A DNA stretch of 64,000 nt from an uncultured Spirochaetales bacterium (GCA_964567895.1 CAZMOX010000003.1:651-64650); one strand, 5' to 3'. Positions 284-63,996 are shown, numbered from the stretch's first letter. Notes: generated by a model not told the origin, from the letters alone. Translations and numbers: made by a program.

Positions 284-285
284 AG

Positions 286-453: not shown

Positions 454-498
454 GGAATGGATTATCAGCGGAGTTATGCAAGGAGGAATTAAACAGTA

Positions 499-1545: not shown

Positions 1546-1684
1546 TCTCAAACGAGCGAGAGAAGCGGAACCAACAAGTTGGTTCCATTTCCGAGAGAGA
1601 GCCGAGAACGCAAGGAAACATACCCCGCCCCTTGGGGCGGAATAGAACCGCCAAAGCGGTTCTGGGTCCAGGCTTGCCCTGGGG
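1546..1684. mobile_element. ~139-bp hairpin-rich non-autonomous insertion, possibly IS200/IS605-derived
   Basis: Three perfect hairpins (1567-1586, 1625-1640, 1644-1663) plus an outer CATACCCC/GGGGTATG pair. It follows TTGAT, and removing 1546-1684 rejoins the two frames of the host gene. Confidence 0.5.
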
Positions 1685-2401: not shown

Positions 2402-2413
2402 ATTCCGGTCAAA

Positions 2414-2553
2414 AGATTGCAACCGATTTGGTTTACAATCCTGGCCGTTCTTCAAGTCATCAAATAAGACTTCAATATCGTTTCTTTCACGTTATGTTTT
2501 ACCAGGTAGTGCAAATTTTCTTCGCTGTAGAAACCTCTATCCATGATATACGA
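2414..2553 (-). mobile_element. IS1634/IS4-superfamily DDE transposase remnant
   Basis: Two non-contiguous motifs joined out of frame: IMDRGFYSEEN and RNDIEVLFDDLKN. Confidence 0.55.
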
Positions 2554-2589
2554 AATATCGTAACACAGCGATGATTTCTGTAGACACGC

Positions 2590-3933: not shown

Positions 3934-3992
3934 CAGAAAATTATCCTTTTCCCTGGAGATATTTTATATATACAAACTTTTAATGATGCAGC

Positions 3993-7629: not shown

Positions 7630-7642
7630 TCTAAGTAGTCTC

Positions 7643-9762: not shown

Positions 9763-9807
9763 TATTACTACCCCTTTTTAATAAAATATTAACTGATTTG
9801 AAAAAAC

Positions 9808-9835
9808 GAACCCGGACAAGCTTTTGTCCGGGTTC
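9808..9835 (-). terminator. Intrinsic terminator or stabilising hairpin after the SBP gene
   Basis: 12-bp stem GAACCCGGACAA/TTGTCCGGGTTC, followed by a T-run on the minus strand. Confidence 0.75.
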
Positions 9836-9862
9836 AGAATTACTTAAGAAAAACCGGTTTAT

Positions 9863-11884: not shown

Positions 11885-11951
11885 CTTTCTCTCCTTTAAT
11901 TATTTCACATATTTTTCACAAAAAGTATTGGTAAGAAGTTTAATATGTTAA

Positions 11952-11983
11952 ACTTAGTTTATCATACTATACATAACTGTCAA
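11952..11983 (-). promoter_or_regulatory. Putative promoter of the ABC-hydrolase operon
   Basis: TTGACA-N16-TAAACT(AAGT). Confidence 0.45.
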
Positions 11984-12226
11984 GCTTTTTCATAAAGGAA
12001 GCGAAGGAAGTTTTTTGCGGTGTGCCCATCATATCCGGGTTCTTAAAGCATGGAATGTGGGGAATTAAAGAATTTACGGGAGTCTAAGGCGTATCATCTT
12101 GGGGATAACATTTACCGATTCTACCAAACGAGCAAGTACTTGATAGAAAATACATAACGAAAAAAGAAATAATGGGAATTTTGGGTGTAAAACTCAGGAT
12201 GACTAATATTAACATTGTGTTAAAAG

Positions 12227-12258
12227 TTGATAATTGTGTATTATATAGTAAACTAAGT
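12227..12258 (+). promoter_or_regulatory. Putative promoter of the aminomutase operon
   Basis: TTGATA-N16-TAAACT(AAGT), the same 10-mer as the divergent promoter. Confidence 0.45.
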
Positions 12259-12332
12259 ACAGTATATTGAACTAACTATAAATATTTGCTATAGATTAAA
12301 TAGGCGGAGATTACATTACGGAGGGAATAAAA

Positions 12333-13913
12333 ATGAGTAATACTAAAATGGAGCATAGAGAGCTTGATTCTTTTACCAAGGAACTTTTTGACGAACTGTT
12401 TGCATCGGTTACTGCAGGTCCCGGAGTTTTCCGAGGAAAAATCGATGAAATGCAAAACAATCTGAACGAGATGAAGCATACTAGGCTTACTCAGCCTATC
12501 CTTGATTTCTTTATACAACTCCTTGAGTTACGCCGGGAACAGGACATCCTTCCCACTGACCTGGGGTTGAACTATGAAGATCTCCTTGTCCTGGCTAAAC
12601 GTCATGAGGAGATCGATGAACATGGAGTTACCTTGGGCGGCCGGATAAACCGCGCACTTCCTATTGTTCAGGCGGCCAACAAACGCGTGGAAGACTACCT
12701 CCATGAAAAAGATGCCGAAGCACCAAGTGGTATTGAGCTATGGGAGAGGATTCAGGAAAACAAGAAGCGGATCATGAAAGAGCTTAAAATGAGCGAAGAA
12801 GAATGGAATTCCTATAAAGGACAGCTCAAATACGCCATCAATTCTGTTGACACTCTTTCAAGAGTTCTGGACCTTCCTCCTTCTGTAATTAAGGATGTTC
12901 TGAGAGTTACCGAATCCTACCGCATGCGCCTGACTCCTTATTATGCAAGTCTAATCCAGCCGGGTAAAATCAATGATCCTGTTCTTATACAGAGTGTGCC
13001 TACAGGTGAAATGGTTGACAATGTAGGTGAAGAGATTCCTCCTGTAGCAGCAGACCATTCACCGGCGAGGCTGATTGATCAGTTTTATCCCAGGGTTGTA
13101 TCGGTTAAGTCTACAAACATGTGTGCCATGTACTGTACCCATTGTCTCAGAATTGCCCATATTGGGGGAAAGGACAGGATTTATCATAAAGAGGCATACC
13201 GGGAGGCTCTTGACTATATAAGAAAGAACCCTTTAATTCGTGATGTTCTGGTAACCGGGGGAGACGCCTTTGTTCTGCCCAACGATATGCTCAGGTTTCT
13301 TCTCGATGAGCTTGACTCAATAGATCATATTACTGTAAAACGCCTTGGTACCCGTATCCCTGTCACAGCACCCATGAGGATAGATGATGAACTTCTCGAT
13401 ATACTTAGTAAGAGCAATGATAAAAAACCGATTCGTGTAGTCACACAGATAAATACAGCACAGGAAATTACTCCTGTCAGCAGAGAGGCTTTTAGGAAAC
13501 TTTCATCAGTATCAATGACAGTCATGAATCAGGCTGTACTCCTGAAAGGGATCAATGATACCCGTGTAAAGATGTGGAAGCTATGCGAGACCATTCATGA
13601 GGCTTACGTCCGTCCATATTATGTTTTCAACTGTTCCTACAGAAATGCTCAATTTTCACATCTGCGTGTTCCCGTTGAGATCGGCAGAGATATTATAGAA
13701 AGCATGTACGGGAACATATCCGGTGATGCAATACCACGTTTTATCTGTACGGCAGGGGGCAAAGTACCTATGTACAGGGACAATGTTATCGGTAAAAAAG
13801 AAAATGCAGTGGTTTTGAGAAAACCATGGTCCGGGGAGGAGGTTGATTATCCTGACGCAGATCCTGAAATATACAGTAAAACAGATTTTGCTTTTGCAAA
13901 GTATAAGGACTGA
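12333..13913 (+). CDS. KamA-family radical-SAM/PLP amino-acid 2,3-aminomutase of unknown substrate
   Basis: CAMYCTHC cluster motif followed by LR, RDVLVTGGD, RLGTR, NQAVLLKGIND, RPYYVF and GGKVP (PLP lysine). It has an N-terminal extension of about 100 aa. Confidence 0.88.
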   Translation: MSNTKMEHRELDSFTKELFDELFASVTAGPGVFRGKIDEMQNNLNEMKHTRLTQPILDFFIQLLELRREQDILPTDLGLNYEDLLVLAKRHEEIDEHGVTLGGRINRALPIVQAANKRVEDYLHEKDAEAPSGIELWERIQENKKRIMKELKMSEEEWNSYKGQLKYAINSVDTLSRVLDLPPSVIKDVLRVTESYRMRLTPYYASLIQPGKINDPVLIQSVPTGEMVDNVGEEIPPVAADHSPARLIDQFYPRVVSVKSTNMCAMYCTHCLRIAHIGGKDRIYHKEAYREALDYIRKNPLIRDVLVTGGDAFVLPNDMLRFLLDELDSIDHITVKRLGTRIPVTAPMRIDDELLDILSKSNDKKPIRVVTQINTAQEITPVSREAFRKLSSVSMTVMNQAVLLKGINDTRVKMWKLCETIHEAYVRPYYVFNCSYRNAQFSHLRVPVEIGRDIIESMYGNISGDAIPRFICTAGGKVPMYRDNVIGKKENAVVLRKPWSGEEVDYPDADPEIYSKTDFAFAKYKD

Positions 13914-13915
13914 AT

Positions 13916-15097
13916 ATGGAAACCACTCCCGTAAAATATCTTGAGGAACGGCATGATGAGATGCTTAAACTCCTGAAGGATCTTGTTTTAATTCAAAGCG
14001 GTACTCACAATAAACCCGGTGTTAACCGGGTTTGTAATGCTGTAGTAAAAGCAGTTGAGGACCTTCCTGTCAGGATAACACGCCTCGAACATGAGCATTG
14101 GGGAGATACTCTGATCCTGTCAGGCAGTTCGGCAGGTGATTCCGGTAACATTCTGCTGGTTGGCCATATGGATACAGTATTCCCTGAGGATACGGATTTT
14201 AACTGGTATCGTGAAGATGAAAAAAATGCCTACGGGCCGGGTGTTATAGATATGAAGGGTGGTATTGTTTCGATCATTTACGCCCTTAAAGCGCTTGATT
14301 CCTGTAATATGCTTTCCAAAATACCGATAAGAGTAATCTTCAATTCAGATGAAGAAATCGGTTCTCCGGTATCCCGGGAGATTATTGCCTCAGAGGCAAA
14401 GAAAAGTGCTATGTCTCTGGTTACTGAGTGCTGTGGTATGAACGGGGAAGTGGTCACGGGTCGAAAGGGGCGTCTGGGTCTGGAGATGCAGGTTCGGGGG
14501 AAGGCCGGCCACGCAGCTAACTTAACAGAAGAAAAATCCAGCGCTGTATTGGCTCTTGCTTATAAAATTATTAAGATAGAATCTTTAAACAACACTTTCC
14601 CTGAACTGACTGTCAATGTCGGCCTCATAGAGGGTGGTACCGGTCCAAACAGCATTGCTGAAACTGCCATGGCTGCTATCGACATTCGCTTTAGTAGTGA
14701 AAAGACGCTTAGTAACTTCATGATCAGCCTTGAAAAGATCAATAATCGCATTGATGTGGCCGGTACAACGAGTCGTATTGTTAAGGTAGCTGATCGTCCT
14801 GCAATGGTGACAACAGAACAAAACAGAGAACTGTTTTCCATTGCCGCCGAAGCGGGGGAAAGGCTTGGAATCCCTGTAGTTGAGGAATTTCGTTCAGGAG
14901 GTTCTGACGCAAATATTATAGCTGCGGCTGGTACTCCTGTAATTGATGGACTGGGTCCTATAGGCAGATATGATCACAGCGACCGGGAATATATGATTAA
15001 GGAAAGCCTTCTTGACCGGACAAAACTTCTCGTTCTGTTGATAGAATTAGGTCATCAGCGTCTATTATCAGGAAAACTTTTTAAGCAGGTTATTTAA
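13916..15097 (+). CDS. M20 metallopeptidase, carboxypeptidase-G2-like
   Basis: GHMDTVF, GPGVIDMKGG, DEEIGS, GRKG, GGSDAN and DGLGP...HS.REY. Confidence 0.88.
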   Translation: METTPVKYLEERHDEMLKLLKDLVLIQSGTHNKPGVNRVCNAVVKAVEDLPVRITRLEHEHWGDTLILSGSSAGDSGNILLVGHMDTVFPEDTDFNWYREDEKNAYGPGVIDMKGGIVSIIYALKALDSCNMLSKIPIRVIFNSDEEIGSPVSREIIASEAKKSAMSLVTECCGMNGEVVTGRKGRLGLEMQVRGKAGHAANLTEEKSSAVLALAYKIIKIESLNNTFPELTVNVGLIEGGTGPNSIAETAMAAIDIRFSSEKTLSNFMISLEKINNRIDVAGTTSRIVKVADRPAMVTTEQNRELFSIAAEAGERLGIPVVEEFRSGGSDANIIAAAGTPVIDGLGPIGRYDHSDREYMIKESLLDRTKLLVLLIELGHQRLLSGKLFKQVI

Positions 15098-15119
15098 ATA
15101 GTTATCAGGAGAGGTTCTT

Positions 15120-16721
15120 ATGGATATTTCAGCTATTGAAAGCAAATTCCGCTCTACACCGGATATGAAAAGTTCATCTGCAGAAGAGGGTATGGTTGCA
15201 ACGGCATTTCCTCATGCGACCAGGGCCGGGGTGGAAATCCTGCGAAGGGGCGGAAATGCTGTTGATGCAGCCTGTGCTTCGGCATTTGCAATCGGTGTTT
15301 GTGAACCCCAGGCAAGCGGCATAGGCGGCGAATCCAACGCTATCCTAAATATGGACGGCATGACCATAGCTCTCGACGGATCAAGCCGCGCTCCTGGGCT
15401 TGTTGATATCAACACGGTAGATGAGGAATCCCTAAGTACTGGTTACAAGGGGACTACAGTTCCCAGTACTGTTGCCGTCTTAGGACATCTCCATAGACGT
15501 TTTGGCCGGCTGAAATGGAATGAAATTCTGGAACCGGCGATTAATATTGCCAGAGAGGGATTTGAAATTACTCAATTTCAGCATGATCTTCAGATACAGG
15601 AACTATCCCTGTTTAAGAAGGTACCTTCGTTATCCGGTGCAGGTTATTACCTGAAAGATGGTTTAAAACCCTTTGAAACAGGGGAGTTATTTACTCAACC
15701 GGATCTTGTATTAATTCTGCAGGATATTGCAGACTTTGGTCCGGAGTACTTCTATACAGGAAAACCCGCAAGTATCATTGACGAAGATATGCGTGCAAAT
15801 GGTGGATTTCTACGATCTGATGATTTGGGTCGAATCCCCTGGCCTGTTGAGCGCACTCCCATTACGACTAAGTACCGAGGACTAAAAATTGCAACTCTGC
15901 CCCCATCTTCTGGTGGAAGAATGCTGCTCCATACACTGGGAGCCCTTGATCGTTGTCCACCTTCTTTTATTGCCGGACAGACTCCGGAATCATATTCACT
16001 ACTGGCCGGAATATTCAAATCGGCATTACATCTAAACGAAGAGAATATTCCCCACCCCGATTATTACTCCCCTGAAAATGATTTCATGCTGTCTGGAGAA
16101 CCTTCAGATATAAATATTAAAAGTATGATGGAAAATTTTTTTCCTGATGCCAGTGGAGAAACCACGCATCTGTCAGTAATGGACTCTCAGGGTAATTCTG
16201 TGGGTATTACACAGTCAATAAATCATCTTTATGGATGCAAAGCAGCAGCTGAAGGTCTCGGGTTTCTTTATAATAGTTATCTTTCTGATATGAACCGGGA
16301 CGATCCGGAACATCCCCACTACTTCAGACCCAATGGTCTTTCCTATTCTTCAGTTGCGCCTGCAATCATTTTTTACAAAGATTCTCCATGGATGGTTCTT
16401 GGAAGCCCCGGGAGTCAACGGATTTTTACTGCCCTCAGCCAGTTTCTTATCAATGTAGTAGATCGGAATATGACCATATCTGAAGCAATGGAAGAGCCGA
16501 GGATGCATTACTCCATAAACAACCTTATAAGTATTGAAGCAGACCGTTTCCATCCATCTGTTCTATCCCGTTTAAAAGAAGAAGGGTATGAGATCGATAG
16601 ACGGGGATCCTTAAGTTTCTATTTTGGTTCGATTCAGACTGTTCTCAAAAAGAAATCAGGAGGCGGAGGGTTTCAGGGAATCGCCGATGTCAGGAGGGAC
16701 GGAACGGCTGGAGGAATATAG
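15120..16721 (+). CDS. ggt: Gamma-glutamyltransferase family Ntn hydrolase (no signal peptide)
   Basis: GGNAVDAA, EPQASGIGG, autocatalytic ETTHLSVMD, SS motif, LGSPG and DVRRDG. Confidence 0.9.
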   Translation: MDISAIESKFRSTPDMKSSSAEEGMVATAFPHATRAGVEILRRGGNAVDAACASAFAIGVCEPQASGIGGESNAILNMDGMTIALDGSSRAPGLVDINTVDEESLSTGYKGTTVPSTVAVLGHLHRRFGRLKWNEILEPAINIAREGFEITQFQHDLQIQELSLFKKVPSLSGAGYYLKDGLKPFETGELFTQPDLVLILQDIADFGPEYFYTGKPASIIDEDMRANGGFLRSDDLGRIPWPVERTPITTKYRGLKIATLPPSSGGRMLLHTLGALDRCPPSFIAGQTPESYSLLAGIFKSALHLNEENIPHPDYYSPENDFMLSGEPSDINIKSMMENFFPDASGETTHLSVMDSQGNSVGITQSINHLYGCKAAAEGLGFLYNSYLSDMNRDDPEHPHYFRPNGLSYSSVAPAIIFYKDSPWMVLGSPGSQRIFTALSQFLINVVDRNMTISEAMEEPRMHYSINNLISIEADRFHPSVLSRLKEEGYEIDRRGSLSFYFGSIQTVLKKKSGGGGFQGIADVRRDGTAGGI

Positions 16722-16742
16722 AAAGAATGAACTAATATTTCT

Positions 16743-16855
16743 TCATCTTTTTTTTGTACTGAGCAACCATATGCACTACAGCGTTATTTTCTCCGGTATT
16801 CTCAATAGAGTGTTCAATATCGCTGTGGTAGCTTAGAAAATCACCTTTATTCATT
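16743..16855 (-). repeat. Duplicate of the 3' end of the XRE-cupin gene
   Basis: 110/113 identical to 19263-19375 (offset 2520 bp). Confidence 0.9.
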
Positions 16856-16895
16856 AACAGTTAAATATGAAAGGTGAGCACTGTATTCTGCGAAC

Positions 16896-17381
16896 TTATC
16901 TGAGCGGAGTTGTTTGAGATCTGCATATTTTGAAATACTTGGTATTTGAAGACAGAATGATAAATGTTTCAGTGTATGATATACCGCCAATTTTCTCTAA
17001 TTCATTCTTAAAAAGAGCATCATTCAATGATTCGAGTGAATCCACCATTAATTCAAAGAAAAGATCAAAACGGCCGCTTGCATTCCAGACACTTGTTACC
17101 CAAGAAATTTTCTCAATTTTTTTAATTATTTCTTCATGATTCCGCTCTATTAAATTTACACCCACAATTGCTGAGATTCTTCTTGGCAGGGCAAATGGAT
17201 TAACTCTGGCTTCTAGTTTTAATATGTCCTGTTTAATCAATCGTTCAACCCTGTTTTTAATTGTACCTTCAGAAACTTCCAGTTTTCCCGCAATAATTTT
17301 AAACTGTCTTCTGGCATCTTCCTGCAGTTCGAGTATTATTTTTCTGTCAAGATTGTCTATTTCATATTTTTCATTGGTCAT
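16896..17381 (-). CDS. Lrp/AsnC-family regulator
   Basis: IDNLDRKIILELQEDAR...VSEGTIKNRVERL HTH plus a C-terminal RAM domain (SGRFDL). Confidence 0.9.
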   Translation of the reverse strand: MTNEKYEIDNLDRKIILELQEDARRQFKIIAGKLEVSEGTIKNRVERLIKQDILKLEARVNPFALPRRISAIVGVNLIERNHEEIIKKIEKISWVTSVWNASGRFDLFFELMVDSLESLNDALFKNELEKIGGISYTETFIILSSNTKYFKICRSQTTPLR

Positions 17382-17609
17382 TTGATTTTTTAAAGCTCCA
17401 ATAATGTATTTATACAATTACACTTCCTGTCTGTCAATGCAGTTGTTAGCAATAGAAAAAATTGAAAAATTATGGTTTAGATACAATAATATCTAAAAAT
17501 ATTCTATCTAAAATATAAAAATATAAAAATATTGATATAGATATAATTCTAGTATATAATCTGAAAAACAATGAGTAAATCTGCATGCAGGAAATTCAGG
17601 AGGAAATAA

Positions 17610-19055
17610 ATGTCAATATCACTGGGAAAACCAATCAGTAATCAAATTCTGTCAAATGAACAGATACAGCAAGTCAATGACTATGCTCTCCGAATGATGG
17701 AAGAGATCGGGTGCAAGGTACAAAGCACAGAAGCCCTGGATATCCTGGACCGTGCAGGGTGTGATGTAACAAACCCTGATAAGATAAAGATATCCAGGAA
17801 ATTGGTTCTGGAGGCTTTGGAAGCAGCTCCGGGTCAAATAGAGGTTTATAATCGTGATGGAGATCTGGCAATGGAATTAAAGGAAGGTTCCTGTAATTAT
17901 GGTACAGGGTCGGATTGTCCTACTACCATTGATCTTGAAACGGGAGAAAGACGCGCCTCTCTAAAAGATGATGTAGCCAGATTGGCCAGATTCAGTGATG
18001 CTTTGCCCAATATTGATTTTGTAATGTCTTTTGGAATTGCCTATGACAGCCCAAAGGGTGGTAATTTTGTTCATCAGTACGATGCTATGCTGAAAAATAC
18101 AAAAAAACCAATAATTGTCACTGGTCATGGAAGAAATGATATGAACACAATGATTCAGATGGCTGCAGCATCTGTGGGGGGGATAGACAAGCTCAAAATC
18201 AAGCCTCCCCTTGTTCTGTATACAGAACCTTTGTCACCCCTTATTCATACAGAGATGGGGATGGATAAAGGGCTGGTCTGCTGTGATTATGAGGTCCCCT
18301 TTGTCTATATCGGCAGTCCCATGCTGGGGGCATCGGGGCCTGTTACTATTGAGGGCATTCTTGTACAAACCGTAGCGGAGTCCCTGGCCGGGCTTGTTGT
18401 TTTCCAGAAAAAGAAAGAGGGTGCAAAGTTTATTTTTGGCGGTGATGCTACTGCCATGGATATGAAGACCAATATTTTCAGATACGGAGCTCCGGAATTG
18501 AATGTTATTAATCATGGGTTAGCAGATATGGCTCATTATTATAAGCTTCCGTTTTTCTGTATTGCCGGAGCAACGGATTCAAAAGTACTGGATGCCCAGG
18601 CTGGATTTGAATATGCAATGTCCATTTACATGGCAACATTGAACGGTTGCAATATTATTCATGATTGTGGTTATCTTGAGTCAGGTCTTACATCCTCTTT
18701 TGAATCGGTACTTTTTGCAGATGAAATTATAAATTCTGTGAAGTATTTGCTTCGTCCATTGGATTTCACTGAATATACAGTTGCCCTTGATGTGGTGGAG
18801 AGGGTTATGGATGGAAGTAACTTTCTCATAGAAGATCATACAGTGGAACATTTCAGAAAGTCTTTATGGTTTCCGCGTTTTCTGAGCAGAGACCGTTATC
18901 AGACATGGGAAAAGGAGGGAAAGAAGGATCTTGCAATGAAATTGAATGAAGAGGCAAAGAAGATATTTTATAACTATCATCCAGCGGATTTAAAGAAAAA
19001 TACAATTGAGGAAATTGACAGGATAGTTGCCGGCCATCGACCTGATGTTGAATAG
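17610..19055 (+). CDS. Trimethylamine-methyltransferase (MttB) superfamily protein, non-pyrrolysine
   Basis: SPLIH, GASGPVTIEG, AESLAG, FGG..TAMDMKT, YGAPE, DSKVLDAQAGFE and HDCGYLESG. No in-frame amber codon. Confidence 0.88.
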   Translation: MSISLGKPISNQILSNEQIQQVNDYALRMMEEIGCKVQSTEALDILDRAGCDVTNPDKIKISRKLVLEALEAAPGQIEVYNRDGDLAMELKEGSCNYGTGSDCPTTIDLETGERRASLKDDVARLARFSDALPNIDFVMSFGIAYDSPKGGNFVHQYDAMLKNTKKPIIVTGHGRNDMNTMIQMAAASVGGIDKLKIKPPLVLYTEPLSPLIHTEMGMDKGLVCCDYEVPFVYIGSPMLGASGPVTIEGILVQTVAESLAGLVVFQKKKEGAKFIFGGDATAMDMKTNIFRYGAPELNVINHGLADMAHYYKLPFFCIAGATDSKVLDAQAGFEYAMSIYMATLNGCNIIHDCGYLESGLTSSFESVLFADEIINSVKYLLRPLDFTEYTVALDVVERVMDGSNFLIEDHTVEHFRKSLWFPRFLSRDRYQTWEKEGKKDLAMKLNEEAKKIFYNYHPADLKKNTIEEIDRIVAGHRPDVE

Positions 19056-19136
19056 TAGGGTTTACTTTGGCAGATTCAATCTGGGAGAGCATTGCCTTGG
19101 ATACTTCACTTTTCTCAGATAAAATCTTCAGAGTCA
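19047..19136 (-). pseudogene. Degenerate copy of the HTH part of the XRE-cupin gene
   Basis: Reads TLKILSEKSEVSKAMLSQIESAKVNP, about 80% identical in DNA to 19685-19775. Confidence 0.8.
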
Positions 19137-19251
19137 AAAGAATAAAGGTCAACAAATTTCTAATTACAGATAGCTATCTAAAAGAGAGTAGGGATGAATA
19201 TGGTATTCCTCTTGATGGGAAACTCACAGAACCTGGACTTGAGTGGGCGGT

Positions 19252-19839
19252 TTAATGCCTTATCATCTTTTTTTTGTACTGGACAACCATATGCACTACA
19301 GCGTTATTTTCTCCGGTATTCTCAATAGAGTGTTCAATATCGCTGTGGTAGCTTAGAAAGTCACCTTTATTCATTTGTATGACATTCTTCCCGGCTGTAA
19401 CTGTTATCGTTCCGTCAAGAAGTGTAAGGAACTCCTCAGTCCCTGTAAAATGAGGTACAGAAAAGAGTTTCTTTCCTTTTTTAAATGTCATTAGAAAAAT
19501 TTCAATGTCTTCAACCATATCCATAGAAGTAAGATCTTTTACCTGGATTCCTTCCTCCCCCTCCAGGGGGTCGGCAATTATAATTTCATCACTTTTTGTA
19601 AGGGTGAAATTTCTGTTTTTGACAGAAACAACTCTTGTAAGTTCATTGATATCAACCCCAAGGCCGGTTGCAATTTTCCAGACGGTTGAAATAGTCGGGT
19701 TTACCTTGTCGGATTCAATCTGGGAAAGCATTGCTTTTGAGACTCCGCTTTTTTCAGAAAGTATCTTCAGAGTCATCTGATTATCTTTTCTAATTTCCTT
19801 TACAATATCCCCGATAGGAAGTAATATTTTTTCAGTCAT
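19252..19839 (-). CDS. XRE-family HTH plus cupin regulator (PuuR/SutR-like architecture)
   Basis: SGVSKAMLSQIESDKVNPTI HTH and cupin motif H.GTEE...GD...Y.SD..H. Start refined to MTEK with an upstream SD. Confidence 0.9.
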   Translation of the reverse strand: MTEKILLPIGDIVKEIRKDNQMTLKILSEKSGVSKAMLSQIESDKVNPTISTVWKIATGLGVDINELTRVVSVKNRNFTLTKSDEIIIADPLEGEEGIQVKDLTSMDMVEDIEIFLMTFKKGKKLFSVPHFTGTEEFLTLLDGTITVTAGKNVIQMNKGDFLSYHSDIEHSIENTGENNAVVHMVVQYKKKMIRH

Positions 19840-58043: not shown

Positions 58044-59207
58044 TTATAATGCCAGCTTAAGGATGTTTAATACATCCGATTCTCCTAGTTTGACAAAATT
58101 CCCGATTTCTCCAAACTCGACAGCTTTTTCTGCCATTTTTTCTAAATTTTTGTTAGGAACATTCATTTCTCCTAATCTGACAGGGAGTTCACAATCTTTG
58201 AAAAATTTTTCCATTCTTCGAATTCCCTCTAATGCAATCGCATCCAGAGAACCAAAGGACAAATCAACATTCCATACACGAATAGCAAATTGGACAAATC
58301 TATTGATGTCGTGTTTGTAGACATATTTCATCCATGCGGGGAATACGACTGTTAATCCAGCACCATGGGCAACATCATAAATTGCACTGACTTCATGTTC
58401 AATCATGTGTGATCCCCAATCACCGATTCGTCCTGTCGTAAGTAGTTCATTGTGTGCAACTGTATTGGCCCACATGATTTCAGCACGGGCATCGTAATTA
58501 TTTGGTTCTCTAAGGACAATTGGAAGGTTTACAATAATTGTTTTCATTACAGCTTCACACAATCTATCGGTAAAATCAACATTTTGTACTTGTGTAAAGT
58601 ATCGTTCAAATACATGGGACATAATATCAGCAGCCCCGCATGCTGTGAGATATTTGGGAACAGTAACGGTAAATTCCGGATTCATAATTGCGAATTTAGG
58701 AATATTGAAAAATGAGTTAGCTGAGCGTTTATAATGTATCTCTTCATTGGTAATAACAGAACCGTCGCTGGCTTCACTTCCTGCGCCGGGAATAGTTAGT
58801 ACAACACCGATTCCAATCGCCTCTTTAGCTGTGGCTTTATCCGTATAAAAATCCCACACATCTCCTTTGTAAGGAACCCCTATTGAAATAGATTTTGCCG
58901 AATCTATGACGCTCCCTCCACCGATGACCAAAATAAATTTGATGTTTTGTTCACGGCATATTTGGATACCTTCTCGAACAAGGCTTAATCGGGGATTGGG
59001 GACAACGCCGCCCAATTCAACAAAATCAATTCCAGCTTCATGTAAGGATTTAACAACTTTGTCGTAAATTCCAAATTTCTTAATACTTGATCCGCCATAA
59101 TGGAGTAATACTTTATCACTATACTGTTTTGTTAACTCACCGGTTTTTTTCTCTGTTCCTTTTCCAAAAACAATCTTTGTTGGGCATAAAAATTCAAAAT
59201 TTACCAT
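58044..59207 (-). CDS. Iron-containing alcohol dehydrogenase (butanol dehydrogenase-like)
   Basis: PTKIVFG, PNP, GGGSVID.AK, GAGSEAS, D.MSH.FE and H.IEHE.SA.YD.AHG. Confidence 0.9.
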   Translation of the reverse strand: MVNFEFLCPTKIVFGKGTEKKTGELTKQYSDKVLLHYGGSSIKKFGIYDKVVKSLHEAGIDFVELGGVVPNPRLSLVREGIQICREQNIKFILVIGGGSVIDSAKSISIGVPYKGDVWDFYTDKATAKEAIGIGVVLTIPGAGSEASDGSVITNEEIHYKRSANSFFNIPKFAIMNPEFTVTVPKYLTACGAADIMSHVFERYFTQVQNVDFTDRLCEAVMKTIIVNLPIVLREPNNYDARAEIMWANTVAHNELLTTGRIGDWGSHMIEHEVSAIYDVAHGAGLTVVFPAWMKYVYKHDINRFVQFAIRVWNVDLSFGSLDAIALEGIRRMEKFFKDCELPVRLGEMNVPNKNLEKMAEKAVEFGEIGNFVKLGESDVLNILKLAL

Positions 59208-59259
59208 AATGGATCTCCTTTCGAGTATTTATATATTCTTTAATCTTCCTGTATACAAG

Positions 59260-60759
59260 TTATTTTTCTGCCCAGTTTAAACTTCTTTGTACTGCTTTTT
59301 GCCAGCCTCTATACAAACTTTCTCTCTGATCCTTAGATATTGAGGGTTCAAAAGCTCTGTCTAATTTCCAATGGGTTCCAAGCTCTTCTTTACTTTTCCA
59401 GAAACCAGTTCCTAAACCAGCCAAGTATGCTGCTCCCCGGGCTGCCATCTCTGTAACCTTGGGTCTTTCCACAACAATTCCTAAAATATCTGCCTGAAAC
59501 TGCATAAGGAAATCACTTTTAGCGGCTCCACCGTCAACCCGAAGCGAACTGCAGGCCTGCCCGAAGTCCTTTACCATGGCATCTAGTACATCCCTTGTCT
59601 GATATGCCATAGATTCAAGAGCGGCGCGTGCAATGTGTTCCAGTGATGTGCCTCCAGTCATTCCGATCATTAATCCTCTGGCATACATATCCCAGTAAGG
59701 TGCACATAACCCAGTAAAAGCTGGAACAAAATAGACTCCTCCGGTATTATCAACCTTCTCTGCAAGCAGATCCACTTCGGCTGATTTTTTAATAACTCTC
59801 AAACCGTCCCGTAGCCACTGGATGGCTGCGCCGCCAATGAAAACTACTCCTTCAAGTGCATACTCGGATCTATTGTCTATATGCCAACCGAGATTTGTAG
59901 TTAATCCGTGTTTGGAAACTATCGGTTCCTCCCCGGTATTCATAAAGAGAGCCAGAGCAGTACCATAGGTGTTTTTGACCATTCCTGGTTGAAAACAGCC
60001 CTGGCCAAAGGTGGCTGCATGCTGATCTCCGGCAACTCCGGCAATGGGGATAGCATACTTGAAGAAATGATTTTCTTCGGTAACAGCAAGCACTCCTGAA
60101 GAAGGTTTTACTGCGGGCAAAATATTTCTGGGAATACCTGTTATTTGTAGAAGTTCATCATCCCATTCTTTTGAATAAATATTGAAGAGCATTGTACGTG
60201 AGGCATTAGAAAAATCGGTTACGTGGTATTTTCTTCCGGATAAATTCCAGATAAGCCATGAGTCAATGTTTCCCATCAGGATTTCGCCGCTTTCCATTCT
60301 TTCCTTCAAACCAGGAATATTTTCCATTAACCACATTATCTTGGTACTGGAAAAATAGGCATCAATCACCAGACCGGTTTTCTTTTTTATCAGCGGTTCA
60401 TATCCAAAATCTTTAAGCTGATCGCATATTTTAGCGGATCGGCGGCACTGCCAGACAATTGCATTGTATATTGGTTTTCCAGTTTTTTTATCCCAAAGGA
60501 TTGTAGTTTCTCTTTGGTTTGTAATTCCAATGGATGCAATCTCTCCGGAACTTATCCTTTCTTCCTTTAATAACTGTTCGGAGCAGATTCGGACCGTCGA
60601 CAAATATTCCATAGGGTCATGTTCAACCCAGCCTGGATGTGGATAAATCTGTTTTATCTCCAGGTACCTGCTGGCTTTAATTGATCCATCTCTGTTAAAT
60701 AGGATTACTCTGGTACCGGTGGTGCCCTGATCTATAGCCATTACATAATTTTTTTCCAT
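59260..60759 (-). CDS. FGGY kinase, GlpK-like paralogue
   Basis: DQGTTG, GITNQRET, NAIVWQCRR, YFS.TK, GDQ, YALEG, VPAFTGL.APYW and LRVDGG. Deviates at KNTYGTALA. Confidence 0.88.
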   Translation of the reverse strand: MEKNYVMAIDQGTTGTRVILFNRDGSIKASRYLEIKQIYPHPGWVEHDPMEYLSTVRICSEQLLKEERISSGEIASIGITNQRETTILWDKKTGKPIYNAIVWQCRRSAKICDQLKDFGYEPLIKKKTGLVIDAYFSSTKIMWLMENIPGLKERMESGEILMGNIDSWLIWNLSGRKYHVTDFSNASRTMLFNIYSKEWDDELLQITGIPRNILPAVKPSSGVLAVTEENHFFKYAIPIAGVAGDQHAATFGQGCFQPGMVKNTYGTALALFMNTGEEPIVSKHGLTTNLGWHIDNRSEYALEGVVFIGGAAIQWLRDGLRVIKKSAEVDLLAEKVDNTGGVYFVPAFTGLCAPYWDMYARGLMIGMTGGTSLEHIARAALESMAYQTRDVLDAMVKDFGQACSSLRVDGGAAKSDFLMQFQADILGIVVERPKVTEMAARGAAYLAGLGTGFWKSKEELGTHWKLDRAFEPSISKDQRESLYRGWQKAVQRSLNWAEK

Positions 60760-60768
60760 TTTTCCTGC

Positions 60769-61830
60769 CTATGGTTTAATAATTATTTTAAGGAGCGGTT
60801 TCTGCTGAAGGGATACAAATGCCTCTTCTATTTTTTCCAGAGGGTAGATTTTACTGATATATTTTTCCATGTTTAACTGTTTTTGTTCAACTAATTTTAG
60901 AATTTGGCGATTCTGCTTTACCGTTGAGGCATGCACTCCGAAAACACCCAGTTCTTTATAATGAATCAAATTACTGTTTAAAAACCCTGTGGCTGGTTCC
61001 GGGAGTCCTCCAAATAGGCTGATTCGCCCCCGGGGTGCTGCCGCCTCTATAGCCTGTGTATGGGTTTGTCCCACGGAGCAGGCCGTGATAAGCACTTCCG
61101 GTCCTATGGCGTTTGTTTCTCTTTTTATGGCGGCGACAACATCCTCTTTATCCGGATGAATTAAAACTATTCCGGGAATCATTTCCAAAGCCTGTCTGGC
61201 CCGAAATCCGGAGAACTCAACCATGATGATTTTTTTCACCCCATTAAGTCTTGCAAGTTCTGCATGCATGCAACCGATAAATCCAGCTCCAAAGATTGCA
61301 ACTGTATCTTCTGCCTGAATATTGAGAAGCTCTTGTGCGTTTAAAGTACAGGCTACAGGCTCACAAAGAACAACCTCTTCAGCCCGGAGTTTTCCAGATA
61401 CAGGAATCACATTACCCATTTTAAATGCGGCTATTGGAATTTCCATGAATTCAGCGAATCCGCCGTCATATTGGAATCCTATAGTTGTAAGTGATTTACA
61501 TAGGTTTGTAAGTCCCCGTCTGCAGGAATAACAATGTCCACATCCGATAGCCGGGGCAGTAATAATCTTTTGCCCTATATTAAATTGAGCTGCTGCGGGA
61601 TCAGCGGTATCTCCTATGTGAACTAATTCGGCAAATATTTCATGTCCAATAATTCGTGGAGTATCAATTTTGCTGCTTCCCTTGGTATACGTCCTCATAT
61701 CAGTCCCGCAGATGGAACAGGCTTCTATTTTACAGATGACATTATCAGAATTAGCCTGAGGCGTCGGAACAGATTTAAGCGCAAACTCTTTTTTACTGGT
61801 ATGTACGAAGGCAAGCATACTTTTTTTCAA
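60769..61830 (-). CDS. Zn-dependent (MDR) polyol/sugar dehydrogenase
   Basis: CSICGTD, GHE, CGHCYSCRRG..NLC, EP.AC and GAGFIG. Confidence 0.88.
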   Translation of the reverse strand: MKKSMLAFVHTSKKEFALKSVPTPQANSDNVICKIEACSICGTDMRTYTKGSSKIDTPRIIGHEIFAELVHIGDTADPAAAQFNIGQKIITAPAIGCGHCYSCRRGLTNLCKSLTTIGFQYDGGFAEFMEIPIAAFKMGNVIPVSGKLRAEEVVLCEPVACTLNAQELLNIQAEDTVAIFGAGFIGCMHAELARLNGVKKIIMVEFSGFRARQALEMIPGIVLIHPDKEDVVAAIKRETNAIGPEVLITACSVGQTHTQAIEAAAPRGRISLFGGLPEPATGFLNSNLIHYKELGVFGVHASTVKQNRQILKLVEQKQLNMEKYISKIYPLEKIEEAFVSLQQKPLLKIIIKP

Positions 61831-61833
61831 CGG

Positions 61834-63237
61834 TTATACCTCTGCTCTCTCAATATCCAGTAGATCGGCCCATAAAGACCATCGTCGACTATGAGCTCCC
61901 AGTGTAAGTGCTTCATGGTGAGTTCCTCCAAGCAGAAGCCAGTTGTCCATTGCATTTCTGATTCCGGAATCCGGTCTAAAATGGAAATACGGCATTGGTA
62001 CGGCTTGCAGCTCTTCAGTATCTAAAATTGTTCCCGGGCAGATAACTAACTGGTATCCATATTCTGCAATAGAAACAAGCGAAACCATGCTGGCTGGTCC
62101 TGGCTGCGCCGAAAAAACTAATGTAGGAGGATTTTCCAGACCGCCAATTTCTAGAGGTCTGTCAATAAGTTTTATGGGGCGGTCTTTTCTGGCGATTCTC
62201 CAATTACCTTCTCCCATATGACTCATTAATGCTGAGTCCCGTGCAAAATCCAAACTATACATTTCGGTAAAATGACCTTCTCCTGCTAATAGGTGTCCTG
62301 CTGCTACTAGAGCGCACGAATGGATATCACCCTCATTAGCATAACCATAGCCTTTTGCCATCATGTTGGAGGCTGCAAGCATCTGGATTTGTTTAAATCG
62401 CCCATCCTCTTTGAATGAATCAAAATTCACACTGAAACCGTTGTATCCGGCATTTTGTAAGAATTTTTCAAAAGCAATCTGCAGTCTGGCTGCATAAGCA
62501 TGGTTTTCAACCGGAAGGGTGGGAGAAATCTGAAAATTTTTCCTGTCTTCAGCTATCTGGATATCGATCTCTTTTTGAGAAACTTCTTCAAAACATCTGT
62601 AAACCTGTCCGATTCCTTCATGATTTACTTCCGGACCTATCACTCTCTGGAAATTTCCCTCATCACTAACTATATCTCCCATACCTTTCATTCGGCCAAA
62701 AACAGCTATCCGCATTTTTTTAAGTTCTGCAGCGGTTAAGGCAGCTAAAGACCAATCTTTTACATAAGAGACAAATGAATCACTCTGCCAATCTTCGGTA
62801 ATTACACTCGTATTGGTGCCGGCCTGGAGGAGCATGTTTGCTGTATCCTGAGCACCATGGATTCCCTGATTAGTTGTCAGTCTGCTCCAGTCCCAGTCAG
62901 AGGTTACTGTGCGGAGAGGCTGTATATTAGCCATTAAGACAGGCAGGTTGTTCTCTTCCAACGCTCTTACCAGTCTGAATCCTGGACTGTAGAGAAGCAT
63001 AACAATTATTATTCCATCGTACTGTTTATAATTAAATTCCCGAATGATGGCTTCAATCTGCTCCCGGCTTTTGGCAGCGCCTGGGAAATCAATATCAATT
63101 TCAGGTTTTAATTTATTAACAATATCGCTGGCAAATTTTTCTTGTGCGTGTGTAATTTCCGGCTGACTTTCATCATATAGTCCATGCATGATACCTAATA
63201 ATCCGATTTTTGGTTTTCTTTTGTTTGTCATATTCAT
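61834..63237 (-). CDS. L-arabinose-isomerase-fold (AraA/FucI family) isomerase, divergent
   Basis: Metal/catalytic pattern GYGYANEGD, FTEMY, SHMGE and GGTHH matches AraA, but the N-terminus is non-canonical. Confidence 0.78.
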   Translation of the reverse strand: MNMTNKRKPKIGLLGIMHGLYDESQPEITHAQEKFASDIVNKLKPEIDIDFPGAAKSREQIEAIIREFNYKQYDGIIIVMLLYSPGFRLVRALEENNLPVLMANIQPLRTVTSDWDWSRLTTNQGIHGAQDTANMLLQAGTNTSVITEDWQSDSFVSYVKDWSLAALTAAELKKMRIAVFGRMKGMGDIVSDEGNFQRVIGPEVNHEGIGQVYRCFEEVSQKEIDIQIAEDRKNFQISPTLPVENHAYAARLQIAFEKFLQNAGYNGFSVNFDSFKEDGRFKQIQMLAASNMMAKGYGYANEGDIHSCALVAAGHLLAGEGHFTEMYSLDFARDSALMSHMGEGNWRIARKDRPIKLIDRPLEIGGLENPPTLVFSAQPGPASMVSLVSIAEYGYQLVICPGTILDTEELQAVPMPYFHFRPDSGIRNAMDNWLLLGGTHHEALTLGAHSRRWSLWADLLDIERAEV

Positions 63238-63240
63238 CTC

Positions 63241-63996
63241 CTAATCCATGTAATAACCGCCATTAATATTGACGGTTTCTCCATTTATAAATCCAGCCTG
63301 ATCTGAAGCTAAAAAACACATAAGCCATGACATATCCTGTTCTGTCCCCAGACGGCGAACTGGAATTTTCTCTGCCATTGCCATTTTTTTATCTTCAGGC
63401 CAGTACTGCATCATTGCAGTCATGACAGCATGAGGTGCGATCGCATTACAGGTAACACCAAACGAACCCAGCTGACGTGCAACGGAACGGGTGAGACTGA
63501 TTACTGCCCCTTTTGAAGCTCCATATACAAAAACAGTTGAATTATCACCATTTTTTCCTGTAATTGATGCCACATTAATGATTCTGCCATATTCTTGTTC
63601 TTTCATTATAGGAGAGACTGCCCTGATAGCATATAAAATACCTTTAATGTTGATATCAATAGTATCATTGATTATTTTATCCGTTGTCTCTTCGATAGTG
63701 CCGGAAAGCAGCAGTCCGGCATTATTGATCAGAATATCAATGCGGCCATATTTTTCTTTGACCGTTGCGATGAGTGAATCAACCTGTTCACGTTTTGAAA
63801 CATCACAGAGAATACCTTCTGATTTCCCTTTTTGGACAATAATTTCGTTTACTGTTCCATACATTCCAACTTGATCAATATCTGTTACAATTACAACGGC
63901 TCCTTCGGCTGCCAGATCAAGGGCTGTTTGCTTGCCCATTCCTTTGCCCGAGCCTGTAATTATAGCAATTTTCCCCTTAAATCTATCCTCTTTCAA
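63241..63996 (-). CDS. Short-chain dehydrogenase/reductase (may start beyond the window edge)
   Basis: TGSGKGMG, NNAG, YGASK, NAIAP and NGETVNINGG. Confidence 0.9.
   Translation of the reverse strand: MKEDRFKGKIAIITGSGKGMGKQTALDLAAEGAVVIVTDIDQVGMYGTVNEIIVQKGKSEGILCDVSKREQVDSLIATVKEKYGRIDILINNAGLLLSGTIEETTDKIINDTIDINIKGILYAIRAVSPIMKEQEYGRIINVASITGKNGDNSTVFVYGASKGAVISLTRSVARQLGSFGVTCNAIAPHAVMTAMMQYWPEDKKMAMAEKIPVRRLGTEQDMSWLMCFLASDQAGFINGETVNINGGYYMD

Follow-up and report, generated by a model that had tools for sequence, protein, structure and literature searches.

Glycerol kinase (GlpK) has five signature residues, Arg83, Glu84, Tyr135, Asp245, and Phe270. The first four hydrogen-bond the hydroxyls of glycerol, and Phe270, which is extremely well conserved, packs against its carbon backbone (PMC3245297). 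The nearest described system to the locus reported here is the D-apiose transketolase route, which uses ApsI, AplK, and AptA/AptB (Carter et al. 2018, MetaCyc PWY-8089), together with the E. coli ST131/SE15 cluster (PMC13001218). The E. coli cluster supports growth on apiose, and in ST131 its two oxidoreductases were hypothesised to substitute for an isomerase (PMC13001218). The SPU microcompartment has DERA as its signature enzyme, and its published model begins with DNA-derived deoxyribose phosphate as the presumed initial substrate (Dwyer, Sutter and Kerfeld 2024, PMC11585597).

Herein, we describe an operon in a 64,000-nucleotide stretch of DNA (the window) from an uncultured Spirochaetales bacterium of a salt lake. 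We consider it rather probable that a DeoR regulator controls the operon and that its genes serve the catabolism of a small rare sugar or sugar alcohol, which would resemble L-arabinose at C2-C3, carry a glycerol-like triol end, and be degraded by a larger system of which the operon forms one half.

Operon layout and linked genes

Five intact ORFs lie close together on the minus strand, separated by spacers of 3, 3, 9, and 52 bp (Table 1). The initial annotation had described co-directional SDR, isomerase, Zn dehydrogenase, kinase, and Fe-ADH genes, and this arrangement was recovered in full. The same gene set was found together across many genomes of two phyla, so the grouping is not due to chance. 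Motif inspection revealed undamaged catalytic motifs in the three oxidoreductases. The SDR reads TGSGKGMG, NNAG, and YGASK at its TGxxxGxG, NNAG, and YxxxK motifs. The Zn-MDR has Cys38/Cys41, His63-Glu64, the structural Cys97/100/103/111, and a GAGFIG Rossmann motif (GxGxxG), and the Fe-ADH carries GGGS and the metal ligands Asp194/His198/His267/His281.

Table 1. Genes of the operon, its regulator, and the linked contig
Feature	Length	Position	Strand	Domains and remarks
SDR oxidoreductase	251 aa	63241..63996	-	operon's first gene; PF13561 (adh_short_C2), 1.5e-58
AraA-fold aldose-ketose isomerase (ISO)	467 aa	61834..63237	-	PF11762/PF24856/PF02610 (AraA N, central, C domains)
Zn-dependent medium-chain (polyol-type) dehydrogenase (Zn-MDR)	353 aa	60769..61830	-	ADH_N PF08240 + ADH_zinc_N PF00107
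GlpK-derived FGGY kinase (KIN)	499 aa	59260..60759	-	FGGY domains, 2.8e-79 and 1.1e-43
Iron-type alcohol dehydrogenase (Fe-ADH), YqhD-like	387 aa	58044..59207	-	operon's last gene; Fe-ADH 7.7e-43 + ADH_Fe_C
DeoR regulator (HTH + DeoRC sensor)		L001 8864-9649, outside window	co-directional with operon	PF08220 + PF00455
C85 gene set		contig C85		CUT2 ABC importer, DUF4432 mutarotase-like, PMI-like cupin, split transketolase, RpiB-like isomerase, GFO/IDH/MocA oxidoreductase

The oxidoreductases could be assigned to broad families. The SDR reached no NCBIfam equivalog cut-off, the nearest models being FabG, glucose 1-dehydrogenase, and meso-butanediol dehydrogenase; it is 69% identical to its orthologue in a Treponema cluster. 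Its VTDID motif suggests that it is probably NAD-preferring, and it would interconvert an aldose or ketose and the alditol. The best NCBIfam matches of the Zn-MDR (threonine, inosose, and YdjJ-type dehydrogenases) were all well under cut-off. This enzyme is probably NAD+-dependent. When gene neighbourhoods were sampled starting from the kinase subfamily, it was present in each of the five non-orphan contexts. The Fe-ADH fell below the NCBIfam cut-off of its best match, the YqhD-type PRK15138 (267 bits vs 645). Fe-ADH genes also turn up near related clusters (L011, L052, L058, and L132), and the probable role of the enzyme is to reduce an aldehyde that arises as a by-product or intermediate.

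The initial annotation had called for the upstream genes past 64 kb. Directly beyond the window end, upstream of the operon, lies a DeoR-family regulator gene, which was absent from that annotation; the importer was found on contig C85. The 216-bp spacer preceding the SDR gene holds a candidate promoter-like site. The regulator is 44% identical to a paralogous DeoR at the DERA microcompartment locus of the same genome (contig C62).

Orthologues of the C85 genes (53-84% identical) directly adjoin ISO-KIN in L004/L054, L007, L008, L011, and L042. From these neighbours in relatives, the C85 genes appear to be the other half of the operon's system, encoded here, in a fragmented assembly, on a separate contig (C85 vs C3), with no physical link between the two contigs recovered. 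This transporter and transketolase half was not in the initial annotation. The transketolase is atypical. Its C-subunit and that of L004 read GAYGG...G(K/R)AGATH, and the equivalents of His461 and Asp469 are gone, whereas 28 of the 29 other spirochaete split transketolases retain both. E. coli AptB likewise has no equivalents of these two residues; the C85 subunit is only 34% identical to it, and the replacing residues differ. The C85 subunits share only 34-42% identity with AptB/AptA. Within this genome, E. coli AplK matched KIN best, and AptA and AptB matched the two subunits of the C85 transketolase best.

Two neofunctionalised enzyme lineages

Alignment with E. coli and S. aureus GlpK showed that KIN keeps NQRET (Arg83/Glu84), VWQ (Trp103), DAYF (Tyr135), and GDQ (Asp245/Gln246), and reads KNTYGTALA where GlpK has KNTYGTGCF. 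Of the five GlpK signature residues, only Phe270 is lost, replaced by Ala; the other four (Arg83, Glu84, Tyr135, and Asp245) are present. The initial annotation had noted the retained glycerol-binding residues and the changed motif, and had described Phe270 as a wall of the glycerol site. The alignment bears out the former, and the GlpK literature agrees with the latter (PMC3245297). It had also proposed an enlarged pocket; the pocket is indeed altered, but it is not merely enlarged, since Gly268Ala, Cys269Leu, and Phe270Ala reshape it.

Among the 120 public proteins nearest to KIN, 119 have Ala270. About half of this subfamily carry source names, every one "glycerol kinase". In the tree, the Ala270 kinases form a single clade with 99% support, apart from both GlpK and AplK. 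The Phe270-to-Ala change is fixed in all isomerase-linked KIN orthologues (17/17, Spirochaetota and Bacillota), and GCF is found in the canonical GlpK paralogues that these genomes also encode. In this genome the canonical GlpK gene is found on contig C14, adjoining a cardiolipin synthase gene. The initial annotation had weighed a glycerol-specific kinase. KIN instead falls in a subfamily with Ala in place of Phe270, separate from that GlpK, and its predicted substrate is not glycerol but a larger ketose or polyol, which it would phosphorylate at a glycerol-like end. KIN also scored above the NCBIfam GlpK cut-offs (751 bits vs 498 for NF000756 and 691 vs 590 for TIGR01311), and these models do not tell the Ala270 subfamily apart from GlpK.

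ISO retains the Glu302, Glu325, His340, and His441 metal set, aligned with the canonical AraA ligands as first proposed. It scored under the AraA equivalog cut-off (193 bits vs 622), and its identity was only 27% to the genome's own canonical AraA and 53-58% to araBD-linked short-form isomerases. Basal members of its family adjoin true AraB (672 bits, cut-off 428) and AraD (352 bits, cut-off 257). These genuine araBD-linked L-arabinose isomerases within the ISO family were missed by the initial annotation. In the tree, ISO falls in a derived clade (100% support) inside the short-form L-arabinose isomerase family. This clade has lost its araB/araD neighbours and gained Zn-MDR and kinase neighbours, and five fixed changes, Glu19Gly, Met117Trp, Tyr122Thr, Ala328Ser, and Met329Leu, flank its active-site motifs. 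Neither araB nor araD was found within the operon or adjoining ISO, as previously stated, and the canonical araB-araD-araA operon of this genome is on a separate contig, C13. The initial annotation had also weighed a normal L-arabinose isomerase with araBD adjacent; ISO instead belongs to a diverged clade without araBD. Because canonical araBDA and GlpK are encoded elsewhere (C13 and C14), the operon is not needed for glycerol or L-arabinose. Despite their altered substrate pockets, KIN and ISO carry plain glycerol kinase and arabinose isomerase names in public databases.

Candidate substrates and pathway

A pathway for a small sugar or polyol other than glycerol and arabinose, with redox steps, an isomerisation, and a phosphorylation, had already been proposed for this locus, and the kinase subfamily and the ISO clade support it. 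From the pocket changes and the neighbouring genes, we infer D-apiose as the best single substrate guess, at somewhat less than an even chance, degraded via apulose and apulose 4-phosphate to DHAP and Xu5P. The order of steps and the individual oxidoreductase roles are likewise read from sequence. The imported aldose would be converted to the ketose both directly, by the AraA-derived ISO, and by SDR reduction to the alditol and re-oxidation by the Zn dehydrogenase. KIN would grip the glycerol-like end by the retained Arg83, Glu84, Trp103, Tyr135, and Asp245, and the Phe270Ala, Cys269Leu, and Gly268Ala changes would create space for the remainder of the molecule while the terminal CH2OH is phosphorylated. 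The specialised transketolase, with no His461/Asp469 equivalents, would then split the ketose phosphate into a triose phosphate and xylulose 5-phosphate, and Fe-ADH would reduce an aldehyde side product.

Several observations weigh against apiose. ISO plus the two-enzyme redox bypass looks redundant, and for a salt-lake habitat polyol osmolytes are no less plausible than apiose. GlpK gives a product with the L configuration at the carbon next to CH2OP. If KIN keeps this stereochemistry (sn-glycerol-3-phosphate, L-type), L-ribulose, L-xylulose, L-arabitol, erythritol, and L-threitol would fit equally. A standard DERA with all motifs intact (281-288 bits, cut-off 117) lies inside about a third of the related clusters, and many clusters have DERA and no transketolase. 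DERA in these clusters is not accounted for by the apiose scheme.

An L-pentulose or pentitol route is possible but doubtful. Here, L-arabitol, ribitol, or xylitol and an L-arabinose-like aldose would be converted to L-ribulose or L-xylulose by the Zn dehydrogenase, SDR, and isomerase. KIN would phosphorylate C5, and AraD, UlaE, and UlaF, which are encoded elsewhere in this genome, would finish the conversion to D-xylulose 5-phosphate. The descent of ISO from real L-arabinose isomerases and the GH51 arabinofuranosidase genes adjoining many derived-clade clusters are consistent with it, and GlpK-type stereochemistry would suit L-ribulose and L-xylulose 5-phosphates. SDR, Zn-MDR, and FGGY kinase also make up the classic module that takes L-xylulose via xylitol to D-xylulose, and polyol-type dehydrogenases are the constant partners of the kinase, the isomerase being optional. 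However, araBDA is already in the genome, the ISO clade has fixed changes beside its active-site motifs, and loss of the His461/Asp469 equivalents in the transketolase would be needless for an ordinary pentose-phosphate route. R. hungatei, moreover, holds a separate AraR-linked isomerase-kinase-AraD operon.

It is unlikely that the substrate is a tetritol, with KIN phosphorylating erythritol or L-threitol (glycerol plus one carbon) or, after oxidation, L-erythrulose. RpiB-like and PMI-like isomerases would then yield erythrose 4-phosphate for the transketolase. All glycerol-binding residues are retained and only the Phe270 wall is gone, consistent with a substrate longer by one carbon, and L-erythritol 4-phosphate would have GlpK-type stereochemistry. 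In known erythritol pathways, erythrulose 4-phosphate is reportedly isomerised by RpiB-family enzymes. The salt-lake habitat and the presence of a KIN cluster in a Halanaerobiales MAG also point this way. Growth on erythritol in the absence of known ery genes is documented for Halanaerobium polyolivorans (PMC10536098), a lead only, as nothing links this phenotype to the KIN cluster. The tetritol route offers no evident role for an AraA-type isomerase of free sugars, homologues of known erythritol enzymes were not found, and DERA is not explained by it either.

Other observations connect the kinase to microcompartments. In L134, a KIN-DERA-ZnDH-ZnDH gene order continues straight into a BMC shell/AldDH/PTAC operon of an SPU-like microcompartment. 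We regard it as improbable, and about as much so as a tetritol substrate, that the Ala270 kinase and Zn dehydrogenases form an undescribed non-apiose pathway by which an imported polyol or deoxy sugar becomes a DERA substrate that feeds some SPU microcompartments. If true, the Ala270 kinase pathway would supply the missing upstream input to at least some of these compartments. Very unlikely is a deoxy-sugar route in which the kinase and dehydrogenases convert an imported deoxy sugar or polyol to 2-deoxyribose 5-phosphate, which DERA would cleave to glyceraldehyde 3-phosphate and acetaldehyde, the latter being reduced by Fe-ADH or handled in the microcompartment. It draws on the bona fide DERA of related clusters and the L134 arrangement, on the Fe-ADH genes recurring close to such clusters, on the DeoR- or SorC-type regulators, which deoxyribose regulons also have, and on the similarity of the operon's DeoR to that of the DERA microcompartment locus. 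Against it, the genome's only DERA lies outside the operon, in the nucleoside-linked SPU locus on C62, DERA-free core clusters exist, and no chemically plausible natural substrate was found. A 2-deoxy aldose would not be expected to serve an aldose-ketose isomerase, and GlpK-type stereochemistry would be opposite to that of dR5P at C4.

A chance grouping of a second glycerol kinase, a second L-arabinose isomerase, and generic dehydrogenases, as the GlpK equivalog score, the uniform public names, and the real L-arabinose isomerases within the ISO family might suggest, can practically be dismissed, given that a whole clade, inherited across phyla together with Zn dehydrogenase and SDR genes, has Phe270 replaced, that canonical GlpK and araBDA are present elsewhere in the genome, and that the ISO clade is without araBD and bears fixed substitutions.

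Comparison with known systems

KIN shares its fold, full length, and about 55-60% identity with E. coli and S. aureus GlpK (PDB 1GLA, 3G25), in addition to the glycerol-binding residues. Unlike GlpK, its subfamily is monophyletic with the three pocket changes fixed, coexists with canonical GlpK in the same genomes, and is encoded within sugar or polyol operons rather than beside housekeeping or lipid genes. ISO has the three-domain fold and metal site of AraA (canonical form 500 aa, short form 465 aa). The short AraA is araB/araD-linked in Balneolaceae, Bacteroidota, and Thermotogota, whereas the ISO clade is partnered by Zn-MDR and a new kinase. As for the SPU microcompartment, KIN, Zn dehydrogenase, and DERA genes abut the shell operon in L134, and the SPU-type locus on C62 has a regulator paralogous to that of the operon. 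The operon itself has neither DERA nor shell genes, and the published SPU model does not start from a kinase/dehydrogenase module. Oxidoreductive routes (xylose reductase/xylitol dehydrogenase/xylulokinase and L-xylulose reductase/xylitol dehydrogenase) resemble the operon in uniting an SDR or aldo-keto reductase with a Zn-MDR and an FGGY kinase. The operon differs in its GlpK-derived rather than XylB-like kinase, its bacterial, anaerobic setting, and a direct isomerase encoded alongside.

The D-apiose route shares with the operon and C85 a GlpK-related FGGY kinase without Phe270, a CUT2 ABC importer, and a split transketolase missing the His461 and Asp469 equivalents, with different residues in their place. 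The initial annotation had pointed to GlpK-like kinases acting on apulose, and E. coli AplK is such an enzyme. The aldose to ketose to ketose phosphate scheme, ending in transketolase cleavage, and oxidoreductases that may replace the isomerase are also common to both. One related cluster (L133), with SDR, Zn dehydrogenase, kinase, and ABC importer genes and no isomerase, mirrors the E. coli apiose cluster. AplK is 36% identical to GlpK and 38% identical to KIN. KIN retains Tyr135 and Gln246, both changed in AplK, and reads ALA where AplK reads GSS. With this low identity and a clade separate from the GSS-motif AplK group, KIN as an AplK orthologue was ruled out, so an apulose kinase role would require a second, independent origin. 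In further contrast to the D-apiose route, the isomerase here is AraA-derived, extra Zn-MDR, Fe-ADH, GFO, RpiB-like, PMI-like, and DUF4432 genes are present, and many relatives have DERA in place of transketolase.

Operon layout and the altered GlpK pocket

The five ORFs of the operon span window positions 58044-63996, separated by 3, 3, 9 and 52 bp, and every catalytic and cofactor motif is intact in their products. The contig (C3) extends 1,455 bp beyond the end of the window (G000:C3:651-64650). Directly past that end lies a DeoR-family regulator gene, co-directional with the operon, and a promoter-like site is present within the 216-bp spacer ahead of the SDR gene. At the contig end, a strong, near-consensus promoter (TTGACA-17-GATAAT) with a hairpin and an AGGAGG site is oriented away from the DeoR gene and toward the contig gap, where a divergent operon therefore begins. 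The nearest relatives are spirochaetes, and the DNA is present in many salt-lake metagenomes.

Operon genes and other loci considered in the analysis
Feature	Location	Strand	Length (aa)	Order or content
SDR		minus	251	gene 1 in operon order
ISO, AraA-fold isomerase		minus	467	gene 2 in operon order
Zn medium-chain dehydrogenase (ZnDH)		minus	353	gene 3 in operon order
KIN, GlpK-family FGGY kinase		minus	499	gene 4 in operon order
Iron-type alcohol dehydrogenase		minus	387	gene 5 in operon order
Promoter, hairpin and AGGAGG site	L001, 10015-10106			end of contig C3, past window
Kinase-side sample	L130			ZnDH-KIN-RpiB-like-SDR-ISO
Kinase-side sample	L131			orphan KIN
Kinase-side sample	L132 (Halanaerobiales)			SorC-DERA-ZnDH-ZnDH-cupin-KIN-SDR-ABC
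Kinase-side sample	L133			DeoR-SDR-ZnDH-KIN + ABC importer, isomerase absent
Kinase-side sample	L134, ENA ERZ16299676 contig, 9001-19500			ABC-SorC-KIN-DERA-ZnDH-ZnDH, into shell/PTAC/AldDH microcompartment operon
Kinase-side sample	JGI sample 3300072015			two ZnDH genes, SDR, DeoR
Ureidoglycolate-lyase/DUF4867 cupin	L132, 4919-5428		169	between Zn dehydrogenase and kinase
Nucleoside-linked microcompartment locus	C62 (L087), 1-14503
AraR-linked operon of R. hungatei	L129, G003:C29, 6885-12029
Short-form isomerases between araB and araD	L014, L023, L047, L057, L060-L062, L068, others; ~10001-11400 each		465

The kinase (KIN) scores above the NCBIfam GlpK cut-offs and shares 55-60% identity with crystallised GlpKs. 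The initial annotation had described a kinase that retains the glycerol-binding residues and reads KNTYGTALA for the KNTYGTGCF of GlpKs. Residue-level alignment to GlpK bore out both points, with Arg83/Glu84, Trp103, Tyr135 and Asp245/Gln246 all kept. The GlpK signature of Arg83, Glu84, Tyr135, Asp245 and Phe270 has been described as "extremely well conserved", and GlpK specificity as having "stayed remarkably unchanged" (Zhang et al. 2011, PMC3245297). The fifth of these residues, Phe270, is broken in KIN, which on this residue appears to fall outside the GlpK isofunctional group.

The replacement is shared by the orthologues. All 17 full-length KIN orthologues adjoining ISO homologues, from Spirochaetota and Bacillota, carry [A/S][L/M]A at the pocket motif, and GCF is read in second kinase copies of those same genomes and in a paralogue on contig C14 of the source genome, a canonical GlpK encoded next to cardiolipin synthase and further housekeeping genes. 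Thermotogota kinases (55-61% identical) were rejected as KIN type, as all 30 homologues examined were canonical GCF GlpKs. In the tree, the Ala270 kinases form one group with 99% SH-aLRT support, set apart from the xxF GlpKs and from a GSS group holding AplK, the E. coli kinase of the D-apiose route, a topology that argues for a single origin. A search restricted to the pocket region of KIN gathered the 120 nearest public proteins; 119 have Ala at position 270, and every source name given among the 120 is "glycerol kinase". The 50%-identity representative library lumps this subfamily with GlpK and gives no size for it. Three further GlpK-family representatives (P0137, P0181 and P0189) have Phe270 replaced otherwise, with the motifs AGV, AAV and ACS, so GlpK would have given rise to several unassigned specificities.

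The isomerase and its family

The isomerase (ISO) carries AraA domains and reaches 193 bits against the NCBIfam AraA equivalog cut-off of 622. It had been annotated as keeping the AraA Glu/Glu/His/His metal ligands with no araB or araD alongside, and this description held. The source genome encodes a canonical AraA, 27% identical to ISO, in an araB-araD-araA operon on contig C13. At least 576 species genomes encode an ISO homologue of about 465 aa. Basal family members have genuine AraB (672 bits versus 428) and/or AraD (352 versus 257) alongside at 25 of the 72 sampled loci, often also with a GH51 arabinofuranosidase, SSF transporter, NrtR/AraR-type regulator and mutarotase nearby. The family therefore includes real L-arabinose isomerases, and the curated AraA model appears to miss those of the short form. 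The isomerases placed between true araB and araD belong to Balneolaceae, Bacteroidota and Thermotogota. Judging by ISO, the one member scored, the short-form family is probably under-annotated.

ISO lies inside a derived clade (100% support, 37 rows). Its members are accompanied by one to three Zn dehydrogenases and an SDR, together with a kinase that is KIN or, alternatively, an unrelated FGGY enzyme of 513 aa; frequent additions are DERA and a small protein of the VOC family. Compared with araBD-linked members, the derived clade shows Glu19Gly, Met117Trp, Tyr122Thr, Ala328Ser, Met329Leu and changes at a few other sites. These adjoin motifs with the canonical Gln16/Leu18/Tyr19, Gln125/His128 and Glu333/Tyr335, which, from the AraA structural literature, we take to be active-site residues. 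The 513-aa kinase that stands in for KIN in some clusters showed no similarity to the R. hungatei AraR-linked kinase, and no informative solved structure was found for it. PDB searches with the binding protein, Zn dehydrogenase and isomerase gave no ligand clue.

By the AraA model, ISO had looked like the sole L-arabinose isomerase of R. hungatei. This was rejected when a separate AraR-linked isomerase-kinase-AraD operon was found, so ISO is not needed there for L-arabinose either. That operon encodes a regulator of the AraR type, a 515-aa isomerase of the AraA/FucI superfamily (its sole model match, a weak one, is sulfoquinovose isomerase), a 535-aa FGGY kinase and AraD. These probably make up a third enzyme set for L-arabinose, so far uncharacterised.

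Associated modules, transketolase and microcompartments

In relatives, ISO and KIN adjoin a CUT2 ABC importer, a DUF4432 protein, a 408-aa protein (similar to PMI-type cupins in language-model features alone), a split transketolase, an RpiB-like protein (PRK09273) and a GFO/IDH/MocA oxidoreductase. Precisely this set, at 53-84% identity, makes up contig C85 of the source genome. A search for sequence overlap between C85 and the end of C3 came up empty; the divergent operon there possibly corresponds to the C85 transporter genes. C85, C39 and C128 hold three paralogous modules within one 3-Mb genome, each with a split transketolase and a 208-aa RpiB-like protein (PRK09273) beside sugar ABC transporter genes. 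Contig C94 (L128) bears a complete L-ascorbate-type cluster (UlaG, UlaD, UlaE, UlaF), in which the regulator is of the DeoR type and a CUT1 ABC importer replaces the PTS.

Where canonical transketolases have (T/S)HxG...GEDGxSHQ, the C85 C-subunit and its orthologue in Treponema have GAYGG...G(K/R)AGATH. At the positions of E. coli TktA His461 and Asp469, these subunits carry Tyr and Ala; from the transketolase literature, we take the two TktA residues to bind phosphate and to read the acceptor C2-OH, respectively. Both are kept in 28 of 29 other spirochaete split transketolases, and C85 alone has lost them among the C85, C39 and C128 enzymes. The nearest spirochaete transketolase with the same loss (G143) had no KIN-type kinase alongside. 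E. coli AptB, the apulose-4-phosphate transketolase subunit of the SE15 apiose cluster (PMC13001218), is also without both residues, with Asn and Leu instead. Searched with E. coli AplK, AptA and AptB, the source genome gives KIN and the two C85 subunits as its best matches, by modest margins.

Six contexts were chosen by way of KIN-type kinases, without regard to ISO. A Zn dehydrogenase is present in all five non-orphan contexts and an SDR in four of them; isomerase, DERA and transketolase are optional modules around a kinase/dehydrogenase core. The Halanaerobiales cluster (L132) is without an AraA-like isomerase, and its cupin may be a non-homologous one.

The only DERA of the source genome sits on contig C62, in a separate nucleoside-linked locus for a sugar-phosphate-utilising (SPU) microcompartment, where the DeoR regulator is 44% identical to that of the operon. 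This locus has a divergent DeoR gene followed by BMC-H/T and EutN shell genes, aldehyde dehydrogenase, RpiB and DERA, along with a pyrimidine nucleoside phosphorylase and a Bmp/PnrA-type nucleoside ABC importer. It looks like a complete deoxynucleoside-to-acetaldehyde organelle locus. At L134, genes for an Ala270 kinase, for DERA and for a pair of Zn dehydrogenases lead straight into a shell/PTAC/EutN/AldDH/RnfC-like operon. This gene order suggests that some SPU-like microcompartments may be fed by the kinase/dehydrogenase module, and not by DNA breakdown alone. The SPU paper makes no mention of such kinase/dehydrogenase genes (PMC11585597).

Candidate substrates and known systems

We are confident that the operon serves neither glycerol nor ordinary L-arabinose catabolism. 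In the proposed pathway, the SDR, Zn dehydrogenase, kinase and importer would carry out an oxidoreductive aldose-to-ketose conversion followed by phosphorylation, and ISO would provide a direct aldose-to-ketose route. Ketose formation, phosphorylation by a retooled GlpK and entry into central metabolism together make a reasonably probable scheme. Since KIN keeps all glycerol-triol hydrogen-bonding residues and lacks just the aromatic wall, it should act on a molecule with a CH2OH-C(OH)-C(OH) end and a carbon substituent. Apulose is a glycerol bearing a glycoloyl group at C2. D-apiose has its C2 configuration in common with L-arabinose and can present its C3-OH as L-arabinose does. Cleavage of apulose 4-phosphate would yield DHAP and, with GAP, Xu5P. 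Only D-apiose among the candidates yields such ordinary products with a transketolase lacking the residues that read the C4-OH and distal phosphate, and it is therefore ranked first, as a tentative choice that could well prove wrong.

Were KIN to retain the stereochemistry of GlpK, L-ribulose, L-xylulose, L-arabitol, erythritol and L-threitol would suit it equally well. A tetritol route is kept alive only as a lead; it draws on the KIN cluster in Halanaerobiales and on the reported fermentation of erythritol by Halanaerobium polyolivorans without known ery genes (PMC10536098). About one-third of related clusters lack a transketolase and encode a DERA whose motifs are all intact, and one such cluster is fused to an SPU-like microcompartment; no plausible route to 2-deoxyribose 5-phosphate could be derived from any candidate substrate. 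A neofunctionalised aldolase was rejected, as the motifs of cluster DERAs did not differ systematically from those of housekeeping or microcompartment DERAs. Nothing specific emerged from the literature on clusters of arabinose isomerase, glycerol kinase and DERA, on the T. maritima kinome (TM0952) or on arabinose genes of Ruminiclostridium.

The Ala270 clade, present in at least two phyla, breaks the Phe270 signature, sits in sugar operons and goes by the name glycerol kinase in every case that has a source name. Reconstructions of anaerobic and halophilic communities therefore probably over-count glycerol use and miss a sugar or polyol pathway. The AraA family offers a parallel, with short forms missed by the model and a derived clade with new neighbours, and the two make a clean pair of test cases for specificity shift. 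If D-apiose is the substrate, the operon would give a plant cell-wall sugar pathway its third enzyme solution; otherwise it would represent an unassigned pathway that feeds a microcompartment in some genomes. Ruminiclostridium cellulolyticum, which is culturable and genetically tractable, has the cluster, making the question directly testable; in strain H10 its gene order is DERA-ZnDH-ZnDH-KIN-SDR-ISO.

The operon is not a member of the araBAD system. The closest known system is the D-apiose transketolase route, which it resembles in outline; however, KIN is not an AplK orthologue and the isomerase differs. The E. coli ST131 apiose cluster, in which a pair of SDRs is hypothesised to stand in for the isomerase and which sustains growth on apiose (PMC13001218), has the same core design as the SDR, Zn dehydrogenase, kinase and importer described here.
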